From Octopus vulgaris (taxonomy: Eukaryota): a DNA stretch of 64,000 bases. Below the pieces are notes generated by a model. The model did no database searches and was not told where the DNA came from. It saw nothing but the letters and a program-made list of their open reading frames with translations. The translations under genes and the position numbers were made by a program. Where the stretch lies: contig OX597815.1 in assembly GCA_951406725.2 (NCBI GenBank), positions 28,768,001 to 28,832,000 of the forward strand, written 5' to 3'. How positions within the stretch are numbered: the stretch's first letter is position 1; each line of letters opens with the position of its first letter. Of the stretch, positions 3,352 to 46,380 are shown piece by piece.

Positions 3352-3474
3352 ATATAAAATACTAATAAAGGTGGCTAGGCGCAATATAAAATCAAAAAGG
3401 AAAAATTCAAAATAGCACCTAAATTGCTAGAAATAAGAGTCCTTTGACTCTTGTTTCTAGCAATATAGGTGCTA
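3352..3474 (-). repeat. mini foldback element (hairpin plus tail)
   Basis: Hairpin 3413-3474 contains GCTAGAAATAAGAGTC, shared with 19042. The 3352-3410 segment resembles the reverse complement of the 19485-19545 tail. Confidence 0.6.
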
Positions 3475-3527
3475 CTCTGCAACCTCACTCACTACATATA
3501 CATATATAGATATATATTCATATCTGT

Positions 3528-3790
3528 AGAGGCACATAGCCAAGTGTTTAGAGCAGCGGATTCGCGGTCGAAGGATCGCGGGTTCGAATCTCAGATCAGG
3601 CGATGTGTGTGTTTATGTGCGAAACACCTAAGCTCCACGCGGCTCCGGCAGAAGTTAATGGCGAACCTCTGCTGACTCTTTCGCCAGAACGTTCTCTCAC
3701 CCTTTCCTCCTGCATCTTGCAGTTCACCTGCGACAGACCGGCGTCCCGTCCAGGTGGGGAGCCTATACGCCTGGCTCGAGAAGGAACAAA
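3528..3790 (+). mobile_element. tRNA-derived SINE, family 4 (V-domain-like 3' half)
   Basis: A/B-box head (TAGCCAAGTGTTTAGAGC..GGTTCGAATCTC) and CCTGCGACAGACCGGCGTCCCGTCCAGG. TSD ATATATTCATAT. Second copy at 56278. Confidence 0.85.
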
Positions 3791-5561
3791 TATATTCATA
3801 TACATACATAAACACACACACACACACACACACACACACATAATTTATAAAATTAAAATCTGCCTGAAGCCTACTGATTCAATAAGCAGGAGCTTGTAAC
3901 GGAACGCCAGTTCGTCGCACGTTTAACTAACCAGTTGTCGCTGATACTCGACCAGGAATCGGAACCGTTTTGCTAACAATCAACACTGGTTACTTACTAT
4001 GCTCTCCAGAGTATTTGTTTAGGAAAATATAGACGTGATAATACACTCATAAGCCTTCGGCGAGTAAACCCTACTACAGTCTCGTTTTCCCTGCCATTTA
4101 TTCTGGAGAAGTCTCCTTTTAAATGAAGAGAAATAGAAACAACCAGTGATAGAAATCGGATCATAGTTTGCCGGAGACTTGCCCCCCCCCTCTCAGCAAT
4201 TACTTCCACTGGATTCGTTTTAAAATAAACATTTACGTATTTCCCCTGCTGCTTTGATAATACACTCTAGCAGAAATCCGCATTATTCCTTCAGTATCAC
4301 ATTTTTCTAAATGTGTTAAATTACTTTTCATTAAAAAAATGGAAGCACTATTTAAATTACCCGCAGAACCTGCAATTGAGATGAATCATTAAATCAGTGA
4401 ACGGTGATTGCTTTAGAGTAGAACCATTATTGCAGCTGGTTATTAATTTTAGGTTGTAGTTCTTTATGTTAATCCAGTGAGCGTCAAACAGTTCGAATTA
4501 TGGAGCACTACTATGATTAGGTAAGATCACGGTGAGTCGTTTCTAAAAAATTCCTACTGTAGCCTTTTCATTTTATTCATATATTACTAATGACCTTATG
4601 ACAGACATGTAAGCCGCATGACTTCATTTTATCTCTCAAGTTTTCAGAAGTTAGTCAGAGAAGAAAGGGTGGAGCAGTGGTCTTTGTAGGCACTACCAAA
4701 ACGGATTTATATGTTTTTGTTAAGCCTGGACATATTTAGGTCAGTCTTGTAGAAAAGCATAAGCAAGGCGGGGGTGCCTGGTTGAAATATTTTCAACAGA
4801 AGGAAATCACACAAGAACATCACCCAAAGATAATGGTCAAAGATGGCTCCAAAGGACCAAATGGTGGCATTAAACCTGCAATTTATAAATATGAGGCATT
4901 TTCTTGGAATCAAAAGAAATTTACACGCACTCTTCTTTGCTCAATACACTGTTTTCCGTTACCCTTCATCTTTCTAGATTAATACATTATGTACCAGTAA
5001 TCAACTCAGTTATATTACCATTACAAAAAAGAAGGGGTTTTGTTGTTAAGTTAGAAGAAAATTATAGACTCTTACTTTTAAATCATTCATGAATAATAAC
5101 TATCATTAATATGAAAATGTTCTATTATATTATTATTGCAGCACTATTTATATGTGTTATCTACTGTTTATATATTTTATACGGTAGGTGGTGTAGAGGT
5201 GTGCAAGGGCAGTAGTATAGTAGAGTGAGTTTGTAGGTGTGTTAAGTGTTGGTGTATGTTTGTAATCGTATTATATGTGTACGCGCGAAGAAATCATGGA
5301 AGTAGGGAACTGGCAGCAGGTGTGAATATGAGGTAAAAGAAACGGCAAGAAGAATTTGGAAGGCATGACAGAAATGTGTATAAGGATAAATGAGTTACTA
5401 TTGTATAGAAGGAAGGAACAGGCAAGGAAATGAAAGAGGAAAATAAGTGGGAGCTCAAGGAGAAAAGTGAGAGAAAATCTGGAGAAAGAATACTTACACT
5501 GCAACACTGGTACAAAAATGTTTTTATTTTTGTTCGGCGAGAGAAGAAAAAGAAAAAAAAT

Positions 5562-6055
5562 GAGCAGTGGCTGTGTGGTAAGTAGCTTGCTTACCAACCA
5601 CATGGTTCCGGGTTCAGTCCCACTGCGTGGTACCTTGGGCAAGTGTCTTCTACTATAGCCTCGGGCCGACCAAAGCCTTGTGAGTGGATTTGGTAGACGG
5701 AAACTGAAAAGAAGCCCGTCGTATATATATATATATATATATATATATATGTATAGATATTTGTATATATATGTATATATATGTGTGTGTGTGTGTGTGT
5801 GTGTGTGTGTGTGTGTGTGTATGTGTGTGTGCGTGTATGTTTGTGTGTCTGTGTTTGTCCCCCTAGCATTGCTTGACAACCGATGCTGGTGTGTTTATGT
5901 CCCCGTCACTTAGCGGTTCGGCAAAAGAGACCGATAGAATAAGTACTGGGCTTACAAAGAATAAGTCCCGGGGTCGAGTTGCTCGACTAAAGGTGGTGCT
6001 CCAGCATAGCCGCAGTCAAATGACTGAAACAAGTAAAAGAGTAAAGAGTAAAGAG
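5562..6055 (+). mobile_element. tRNA-derived SINE, family 2 (internal microsatellite, CR1-like tail)
   Basis: tRNA-like head, CORE-like CCTTGGGCAAGTGTCTT, internal (TA)n(TG)n, and tail GGTGCTCCAGCAT..GACTGAAAC(AAGAGTA)n. Near-identical to 51208 and 60469. Confidence 0.9.
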
Positions 6056-6225
6056 ACAGGAAAAAGAGAGGAAGGTGCGAGTTGAGAGAGAGAGAAATAT
6101 TGCTATCTGTTTACTTTATCACCTTAATCTAACTATTTATACATGAATCTGTGCATGACCAAATCTGACCATGGTTCTCTCTTATATTTGATCTCCTTTC
6201 CTCTCTTTCTCTTAGACTTTCCTCT

Positions 6226-6263
6226 AGTATCCGATGAAGGAGTTAAGCCCGAAATGTTATACT
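6226..6263 (+). ncRNA. degenerate minimal hammerhead motif
   Basis: AGTAT-CCGATGA-aGG agttaag cCC-GAAA-TG-TT-ATACT. Perfect 5-bp stem I, U4C core change, weak stem II. Preceded by a pyrimidine-rich tract, as in the other HHR elements. Confidence 0.5.
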
Positions 6264-44643: not shown

Positions 44644-45195
44644 ATACTCGGTTTCATGCCTTTAACGATAAGACTGAGAACTTCGTATTAGGACTCGAGC
44701 AAACAAAACAATACAGGGTTGACGTAAGACAGTAAACAAATGTCATTTGAAACGATAGACGAAGACAATAAATAAAGCCATTCGGCCAAACACGAGAGTG
44801 ATGGGTAACGCCTAGAAGAAATCCTCAAACGGATATAAAAAAGAATTAGTAACATATATATATATGTATGTATATATAAAAGTATATATATGTGTGTGTG
44901 TGTGTATAAACACATACACACACACATATATATGCATGGCCTATTGGTTTGGATGTTGCATTCAAGATCGTGTTGCATTCCTAGACCAGGTGGTGCGTTG
45001 TGTTCTTGAGTAAAATATTTCACCTCCCGTTGCTCTGCAATCACTTCGACAGGTGCACAAATCGTTAAGAAACGATTTGATGAAAAGAGTGAGCTAATGT
45101 ACAGGATACACATTTGATCACTATAATTTTCTTGTGCAGGTCGTTCTACAGGAGAGTCCACTATTATGTTATATTATATATTATATTATATTATA

Positions 45196-45530
45196 CTAGC
45201 ACTATGAGCCGGCAACGCCAGGTCATAGTGCTAGTGCATGCATACACAGCTGCGTGCGTGCGCACATACACGTGAGTACTGTCCAAATCTCCGACCAATC
45301 ACATACTGCTAGCTGGTATTCAATTGGCGTATCAAGTTTCGGGCATTTTGATTGGGTTTTGGATAGAAAATTCACAAAAAAGTCACTTCTATTGATTTTT
45401 TAATGGCTTTGTGGGATGACTGGGGAAATGTAAAGATGTGCACAACCACCCTTGGATGGTTTTGAATGTCCATAGACATTGTGGATTTGTATAAAGGATA
45501 CACACACAGACATTTTGCCGTTTATATATA
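45196..45530 (-). mobile_element. non-autonomous Helitron
   Basis: Reverse complement starts TATATATAAACGGCAAAATGTCTGTGTGTG and ends in a hairpin (GGCGTTGCC) plus CTAG|T. Confidence 0.75.
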
Positions 45531-45833
45531 TATATATATATATATATATATATATATATATATATATATATATATATATATATATATATATATATATGCT
45601 GGTTGTCTACTCCTTATACAGAGTTTGACCACCTCCTGTACCTACACCTTAGCATCATCATGGCGCCTGATGTGGCTTTTTAAACTAGACAATGTTCTGA
45701 AAAGACACTCACATAGATTGCACCTCTGACTTGGACCACCAATACCTGCAGATAAGTTAAAGAGGACAACAAATGCTGAGGCAAGACAAACACCTCAAGT
45801 CATATACGTTATTATTATTGGAAAAATTTTACA

Positions 45834-45889
45834 GTCTTACAGCTGTTTCTGGGATATGCCAAAATATAGGATATTCCGTTATCGGAGAC
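45834..45889 (-). ncRNA. decayed hammerhead motif (PLE 3' end-like)
   Basis: Reverse complement: GTCT-CCGATAA-[GGAATAT..ATATCCC]-GAAA-CAGCTG-TA-AGAC. The same 3' half GAAACAGCTGTAAGAC occurs on + at ~43654. Confidence 0.55.
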
Positions 45890-46204
45890 AAATATGGAAA
45901 ATGTGAAGGATATAGAGGACTGGAGAAAAGGAATAAAGAAAAGAAGAACAAGGAGCATAAAAGTTCACAGTTCAACTTTCCGATAGTGTAAATGTTCGTT
46001 CGTAGGTCCTTAGGTGCAATCCTATGTAAATTTATGTATGGTTATAGCCTTCATAGTGTAAATATCGAGAGATATACGCGAACATATCGAAGGTTCTCTT
46101 TATCTCTCATTCCCTCCCTCTCAGTATATACATACATACACAAATATATATATGTGTGCATATATATATATATATATATATATATATATATATATATATA
46201 TATA

Positions 46205-46380
46205 TATAAATTAAAATTTTGGGTATCTAAGAGATACCACGTTGAAAATAGCAGTCAAAACCTGTCTCTAAAACCACATTAAATGTTCATAATTATTACC
46301 TTTGAAGGTTTTTATTCCCATGCTGGCCACTTGATAGGATCGATATTTAAATTAACGATCTTATCCTTATTTATATAAAT
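46205..46380 (+). mobile_element. internally deleted relative of the 16793 element, inside (TA)n
   Basis: Left arm (GGGTATCTAAGAGATACCAC..CCACATTAAATGTTCATA) is fused directly to the tail (ATAATTATTACCTTTG..CCACTTGATA..TTATCCTTATTT). Confidence 0.8.

Follow-up and report, generated by a model that had tools for sequence, protein, structure and literature searches.

Foldback repeats sharing a 15-nt motif and an adjacent hairpin in Octopus vulgaris: probable passengers of Penelope-like retroelements

We analyzed a stretch of 64,000 nt of the Octopus vulgaris genome (assembly GCA_951406725.2, contig OX597815.1, positions 28,768,001 to 28,832,000 of the forward strand), referred to below as the window, for nine repeats, A to I, most of them foldbacks carrying a 15-nt arm motif, a small hairpin, and a one-sided tail (Table 1). 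The repeats, which are non-coding, are probably Penelope-like retroelement (PLE) derivatives of two kinds, non-autonomous passengers and truncated ends, for which the reverse transcriptase/GIY-YIG endonuclease of a PLE would do the copying in trans. We favor this reading because two hammerheads in A, half a hammerhead in H, the pairing of an inverted tail-less arm with a tailed one, variable and symmetric junctions, and head-to-tail joints all match the published anatomy of PLE insertions. The assignment to PLEs, which the first-pass annotation of this DNA had based on a single hammerhead-bearing member, is thus supported more broadly.

The 15-nt motif was found 18 times in the window with at most three mismatches, against a mean of 3.47 and a maximum of 9 in shuffled sequence, and none of 100 shuffles reached 18. 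Ten of the 18 matches fell in inverted-repeat elements, namely, two each in A, C, and E and one each in B, D, F, and H, and all seven of these elements are foldbacks or half-foldbacks, in agreement with the initial observation that otherwise dissimilar foldbacks share an arm motif. The scan placed the copies at 16828/17556, 19046/19420, 34867/35174, 35943, 46245, and 3443 and added a new one at 62297, through which element H, absent from the copies listed earlier, was found; the partner copy of D at 3430 and the cut copy of G at about 27014 were identified by direct reading of the sequence. Two further elements, G and I, have the hairpin and the tail, the motif being cut in G and diverged in I. 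The remaining eight matches comprised 19955 and 63219 in another repeat, 8999 in a different hammerhead foldback, 25066, and four chance-like sites. Site 25066 (25010-25110) resembled the E arm (p = 0.02), had neither partner nor tail, and was excluded as ambiguous. The repeat harboring 19955 and 63219 is a family resembling miniature inverted-repeat transposable elements, with two copies (19731-20214 and about 63050-63350) and 27-nt terminal inverted repeats.

The first-pass annotation wished its proposal to be judged by whether the motif is enriched in inverted pairs over chance. Here, the count of convergent motif pairs within 1 kb was a weak test (four against 1.2 expected, P = 0.032, one of them, 19046/19955, being spurious), yet self-BLAST returned significant inverted arms in A (99 nt, 94%, E = 2e-28), C (E = 9e-39), E (E = 8e-17), and D (E = 2e-12). 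Arms measured 36 to 225 nt with variable inner ends, and the spacer between them is shortest in D (about 1 nt) and longest in A (610 nt), close to the range of roughly 1 to 620 bp first estimated. The interiors of the elements are unrelated. A coding origin of arm and tail was rejected, no open frames being seen by eye.

The arms follow one order. Outermost is a simple repeat, followed inward by an A/T run and by a hairpin that in most cases has GG..CC as its closing pairs; 5 to 17 nt farther in lies the motif. The hairpin, already noted as usually lying outside the motif, was the minimum-energy fold in nine of nine arm segments and outperformed shuffled sequence (z ≤ -2.4) in five of them (A, B, E, G, and I), without reaching significance in C, D, F, and H; it is damaged in the right arm of C and missing from the right arm of D and the left arm of E. 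Stem sequences differ among A/B, C, D, E, F, G, H, and I, with pairing retained. Because the hairpin is retained with different stem sequences, a conserved cis signal is supported, and this retention argues more strongly than any other finding for a functional cis element. A GG..CC hairpin descriptor, which was written after the arms had been viewed, scored at least 3 in 7 of 10 member matches, in 0 of 8 non-members, and at 5.8% of random sites. The description of most elements as abutting simple repeats also held, since 10 of 17 element ends lay within 10 nt of a strict microsatellite, compared with 11.5% of random positions within 15 nt. By the strict rule, no end of E or D is near a microsatellite, the D tail ending about 11 nt from an AGGT array. 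The window as a whole is rich in microsatellites (114 tandem rows) and full of interspersed repeats.

A relaxed type I hammerhead descriptor, tuned on A and applied to both strands of the 64 kb, matched exactly two sites, both of them in A (17193 and 17409) and on the tail-ward strand, while shuffled windows gave one match in 2 of 20 cases and two matches in 0 of 20. Each of the two hammerheads has one core lesion in the window copy, and most matched contigs from public sequencing runs have the canonical letter: in run X1, contigs differed from the window letter at a depth of 11991 of 12077 (99%) at 17410 and of 21987 of 26978 at 17246, with runs X2, X8, and X9 pointing in the same direction. 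Compared with shuffles, hammerhead 1 folded better (z = -3.3) and hammerhead 2 did not (z = -0.03). The predicted cleavage triplet of hammerhead 1 ends at 17252. Both have a short palindromic helix III, and hammerhead 2 also has an extra base after A9, two features described for PLE hammerheads (PMC4209133). Element H starts inside a type I hammerhead and keeps its 3' half; a possible decayed hammerhead in E, near 34921-34975, was not significant (p = 0.57). The A and H hammerheads are putative type I ribozymes of the PLE type, situated upstream of the 3' end.

Readings of hammerhead 1 as a selenocysteine insertion sequence or as a C/D-box RNA were ruled out, since the hammerhead box is complete with the letter that most contigs carry. 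The changed copy in the window (17180-17250) does fold like a C/D box and has weak small nucleolar RNA matches, likely a coincidence of its CUGAUGA core. Rfam applied to the window gave only microsatellite-driven microRNA noise among the matches listed (best 150 of 213).

Sequencing runs offered a view of family A outside the window. Part of A was present in 20 of 24 listed public runs, none of which held half of its words. Contigs of four runs (X1, X2, X8, and X9) were compared with A at 80% likeness, and 2687, 2689, 1041, and 114 of them matched, covering 30 of 30 bins in each run; family A is clearly multi-copy, contig depth not being equal to copy number. Depth falls at the inner end of each A arm, and loose ends before 17490 and 17567 showed different interiors attached to the A arm and tail. 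Among the joints listed (15 of 38 rows of the analysis's table 5 and 12 of 35 rows of its table 5c), there were at least six distinct left-arm-to-right-side junctions, three of them mirror-symmetric within 4 nt of the arm register and two B-like; three of these six arm joints lacked the right-hand motif. The same rows held tail-to-head joints from 17677 to 16898 (three runs) and from 17699 to 16894, and in some A copies the tail end is followed by a start in which about 20 nt of the inner left arm are kept (table 5c). A module of about 393 nt was delimited by a back joint from 17385 to 17004 and by skips from 16982 to 17381, 16986 to 17395, and 16988 to 17382. Finally, the two arms of A share minority letters of the contig pool (16851/17547 and 16857/17541).

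The tails, 64 to 117 nt long, had at first been described as related throughout (TAATT..CCTTT..CCAC), and this stood within A/B/H/I (A-B, A-H, A-I, B-H, and B-I, p = 0.003 to 0.007; H-I not significant at 0.32 to 0.48) and within C/D (p = 0.003). As one family it did not stand: the A tail had no significant similarity to those of C, D, E, or G, and leave-group-out profiles gave no cross-detection between the groups, the best cross matches having E values of 8.5 and 20. Weak links joined G to C (p = 0.01 to 0.02), E to D (0.03 to 0.05), and I to C (0.03 to 0.04). The A/H/I profile detected B and, weakly, F, which has no tail; the right arm of F is related to the H arm (p = 0.003), and F was found at an E value of 0.05 by a profile built without it. 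An AT-rich 3' hairpin is present in the tails of A, B, G, and H, that of G alone beating shuffles, and absent from that of D.

Published PLE insertions comprise an inverted 5'-truncated copy and a one-sided tail, those of the Naiads being preferentially at (TA)n (PMC8557442); their inverted junctions are palindromic, partial tandems occur, and pseudo-long terminal repeats suffice to move other sequence in trans (PMC3846280). An inverted terminal copy lacking the one-sided 3' tail was found in A, C, D, and E, and variable 5' truncation with partial tandems was seen in the contig joints and in B, G, and H, the tandems in family A only. The mechanism we propose builds on the anole PLE protein PAc, which in vitro acts on both strands of AT-rich DNA, cutting and extending them, and initiates reverse transcription at two RNA sites within a stem-loop, one at each limit of the tail (PMC11167929). 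The sense RNA would be the hammerhead-bearing strand (plus for A), and a PLE protein would recognize the motif and the adjacent hairpin. As for PAc in vitro, both strands would be nicked, here at (TA)n, and reverse transcription would begin at two sites, a start at the tail end yielding the direct copy and a start just 3' of the arm hairpin yielding the inverted tail-less arm. The stopping points of the two copies would set the spacer (about 1 to 610 nt) and could produce A, the B-like joins, the perfect foldbacks C and D, and the one-sided stubs G and H. Within the A group, the order hairpin, CCT, A/T run, TATA stands at both predicted starts, which could thereby base-pair with the nicked DNA.

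It is probable that the families depend on a single PLE lineage or on a few that are related. A more daring version, which we advance tentatively and hold to be doubtful, is that a single PLE enzyme recognizes a transferable signal some 45 nt long, composed of the 15-nt motif and of a hairpin whose sequence is free, and mobilizes a guild of unrelated non-coding RNAs. If true, this would define by its 3' signal a class of PLE passengers resembling short interspersed nuclear elements (SINEs), in which both cDNA starts at hairpin-CCT-A/T-TATA would anneal to nicked (TA)n and a hammerhead-bounded, retrozyme-like module would ride inside. The single mobilizing enzyme of the first-pass annotation was not demonstrated: an autonomous element with the signal was not found in the window or in the published Naiad supplement, and at least two sequence groups are linked by the 15-nt motif and architecture only.

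Several observations weigh against a PLE origin. Complete hammerheads occur in one of nine elements and half of one in a second, with none in C, D, F, G, B, and I; Rfam gave 10 weak rows on A, none of them a hammerhead, so that neither A hammerhead was called, and our own descriptor missed a hammerhead at 8937. The contigs are short and were matched at 80% likeness, and single joints may thus be repeat artifacts, while mirror-symmetric joints can also come from later spacer deletion. The start pattern is a prediction, and CCT..TATA is common, with 42 matches in the window. Published tails of endonuclease-positive (EN+) PLEs measure 30 to 40 nt, neither tail group detects the other, and A shares part of its layout with Helitron-related elements (see below). 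As to the question of which autonomous element carries the motif at its terminus, none with the arm signal was found in the window or in the Naiad supplement of PMC8557442. In that supplement, three DNA terms matched once each at unrelated places and two were unmatched, line breaks possibly hiding matches, and the 3' ends of Naiad_Obim and Naiad_Ovul were by eye unlike arm or tail. The sole PLE coding fragment in the window, 41999-42538, adjoins no member.

That fragment, counted for its presence in the same window in favor of a PLE origin, encodes a reverse transcriptase thumb/linker region on the plus strand and lies between (TA)n tracts in a relic (41470-42540) that we take to be Neptune-like from motifs in the relatives P0023 and P0031. 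The relic has an apparent inverted hammerhead-bearing arm at about 41470-41630 that lacks the motif. The frame at 41996 had 1363 relatives in a HMMER search, Pfam named 0 of 7 relatives tested, and word-based protein searches with this frame found nothing. Pfam on 118 of 225 candidate frames reported only Helitron domains above the cut-off. Motif scans of metagenome contigs (26 loci) and viral contigs (5 loci) gave 0 of 31 loci similar to the window at E = 1e-4, the matches reading as chance microbial ones.

Among the other explanations, it is unlikely that the repeats are non-autonomous Helentrons (Helentron-associated interspersed elements [HINEs], or DINE-1) moved by a rolling-circle Rep/helicase, with motif and hairpin as palindromic subterminal inverted repeats (subTIRs), the tail hairpin as the 3' stem-loop, and the hammerhead module as captured cargo. 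Their ends are indeed asymmetric with a hairpin close to each, and the left arm of A is followed by a degenerate TATG-like microsatellite tract which, together with a module in zero, one, or more copies and a 3' hairpin, recalls the microsatellite and internal tandem module described for HINEs (PMC4067079; PMC7492417). The same papers give subTIRs of 11 to 15 bp, situated 38 to 60 bp from the 3' end, and TT flanks; this length and position were not found here, where the arms are far longer with variable inner ends, the tails exceed 60 nt, and the flanks are (TA)n or other simple repeats. Element B and half of the arm joints lack the right-hand motif, and rolling-circle transposition would predict neither mirror junctions of variable position nor hammerheads that, in two families, precede the arm and share one orientation. 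A Helitron coding relic does lie in the window (36524-38367, minus strand), a broken Rep/helicase with Helitron_like_N, PIF1, and Pif1_2B domains, but its only recognizable end (36524-36552) is a canonical hairpin plus CTAG and lacks the motif.

We give a similarly small chance to the view that A, B, H, I, and F are PLE passengers while C, D, E, and G are separate foldbacks whose motif and hairpin arose by convergence or were left over from a remote ancestor, no enzyme being common to the two sets at present. The unrelated interiors, the tail results given above, and the lack of a convincing hammerhead in C, D, E, and G are what this view expects. It does not account for the arrangement of A/T run, hairpin, and motif, which is alike in order and spacing in both groups, nor for a tail on the direct side only; arm scores linked A to C and A to E (p = 0.003 to 0.01, partly circular as the arms were chosen by the motif), and weak cross-links such as that between the I and C tails point the same way. 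DIRS elements have a one-sided extension beyond the inverted repeat. Least probable of all is that the repeats are passengers of another class with asymmetric inverted ends, such as these tyrosine-recombinase retroelements or foldback DNA transposons targeting (TA)n, since the resemblance of the tail to that extension and a tail end joined to the inner left arm, which could prime arm repair, are set against the lack of such coding sequence in the frames scanned, the lack of an internal complementary region in A by self-BLAST (no search was aimed at one), and the better fit of variable truncations and hammerheads to PLEs.

Table 1. Position and structure of the elements in the window
Feature	Coordinates	Strand	Remarks
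A left arm	16796..16893	-	Copy of 17504-17602 in inverse orientation, lacking the tail; adjoins (AT)n 16715-16795; hairpin at about 16802-16818; motif at 16828-16842
A internal module	16993..17385	+	About 393 nt; holds hammerhead 1; absent or tandem in other copies
A type I hammerhead 1 (putative)	17180..17264	+	Core 17193-17199; long helix II; second box 17243-17246 (one change); palindromic helix III
A type I hammerhead 2 (putative)	17396..17468	+	Core 17409-17415; one change at 17410; palindromic helix III
A right arm	17504..17602	+	Motif 17556-17570; hairpin about 17579-17595
A tail	17603..17700	+	98 nt; AT-rich terminal hairpin 17658-17689; ends at TA/TG repeat
B	46209..46378	+	A-type left arm 46209-46291 fused directly to A-type tail 46289-46378; right arm absent; (TA)n on both sides
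C	19013..19543	+	Near-complete foldback 19013-19467; palindromic center; 76-nt tail; (TG)n left, (ATAG)n right
D	3345..3485	-	Minimal foldback; about 1-nt spacer at 3442; arm and tail related to C
E	34850..35300	+	70-nt arms 34850-34919 and 35136-35205; about 215-nt spacer; tail boundary uncertain
F	35893..36010	+	Small foldback around motif 35943-35957; tail absent; abuts (TA)n 35403-35889
G	26866..27018	-	Right arm cut inside motif; hairpin; 117-nt tail ending at (AT)n 26829-26863
H	62230..62440	+	3' half hammerhead about 62253-62266; right arm; motif 62297-62311; hairpin; A-related tail; simple repeats on both sides
I	1..143	+	Outer part of right arm, hairpin included; motif either diverged or outside the window; A-related tail ending at (TA)n

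The window holds further foldbacks. Those at 8577-9032, enclosing a (TTA)n array, and at 48756-49304, enclosing a SINE-like fragment, have arms with minimal hammerhead-like motifs and are classic inverted PLE ends lacking the GG..CC signal. A 71-nt foldback at (TA)n (1266-1400), whose arms end in GTCAAAA like the motif and are followed by a rearranged hammerhead-like stretch, is possibly a distant member or another PLE family. Foldbacks lacking the motif were seen at 13519-13626, 18377-18590, 620-756, 33428-33489, and 45195-45235, several of them at microsatellites, the last with CTAG at both ends like a mini-Helitron palindrome. Two 3' fragments of long interspersed nuclear elements, 1465-2480 and 228-566, lie in opposite orientations, with RVT_1 below the cut-off.

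How PLE proteins recognize their RNA and how inverted repeats and tails are built is stated as an open question in PMC8557442 and PMC11167929. Families that keep motif and hairpin while the rest changes point to a minimal cis signal and two start sites, and the elements are ready substrates for the existing in vitro PLE assay. Their description would also classify an abundant, probably unlabeled repeat set in this animal; a cephalopod repeat analysis discarded unknown repeats (PMC8967140). Our literature search found no description of these families, with PMC8557442 as the sole match for cephalopod hammerhead ribozyme and Penelope; they may already be catalogued in Dfam or Repbase, and non-autonomous PLE derivatives are already in print (PMC8557442).

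We compared the elements with known systems, taking class definitions from PMC8969392. Insertions of EN+ PLEs (Penelope/Poseidon and Neptune; PMC3846280, PMC11167929, and PMC8557442) are alike in their inverted tail-less copy, tailed direct copy, palindromic junctions, partial tandems, type I hammerheads with a palindromic helix III, and AT-rich targets. Unlike them, the elements described here have no open reading frame and longer tails, one unit of A carries two hammerheads that differ from each other and lie 216 nt apart, and motif and hairpin are common to families with unrelated interiors. The octopus Naiads (Naiad_Obim and Naiad_Ovul; PMC8557442) share (TA)n preference, inverted copies, and a tail with these elements but are described as lacking canonical hammerheads and as encoding a protein with an N-terminal GIY-YIG domain; A, with canonical-type cores, no open reading frame, and different ends, therefore falls outside the Naiad clade as defined. 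Non-LTR (long terminal repeat) retrozymes (PMC7229834; bioRxiv 10.64898/2026.07.22.740005) and non-autonomous Chlamys elements such as MRC1 are likewise non-coding and PLE-linked, and the 393-nt module of A, which has one type I hammerhead and can be tandem, is within the published range of 150 to 450 bp; unlike retrozymes, which form free tandem arrays, it is enclosed by inverted arms and a tail. HINE/DINE-1 elements (PMC4067079; PMC7492417) resemble ours in asymmetric inverted ends, hairpins at both ends, and, for A, a microsatellite and tandem module, and differ in arm length and variability, tail length, TT rather than (TA)n flanks, and hammerheads. Taken together, the overall architecture is already known, being that of PLE insertions rather than of the unnamed superfamily first suggested, and the gain is mechanistic detail and not a new class; what appears new is the cross-family signal of motif plus hairpin, the long tails, and the embedded hammerhead module.

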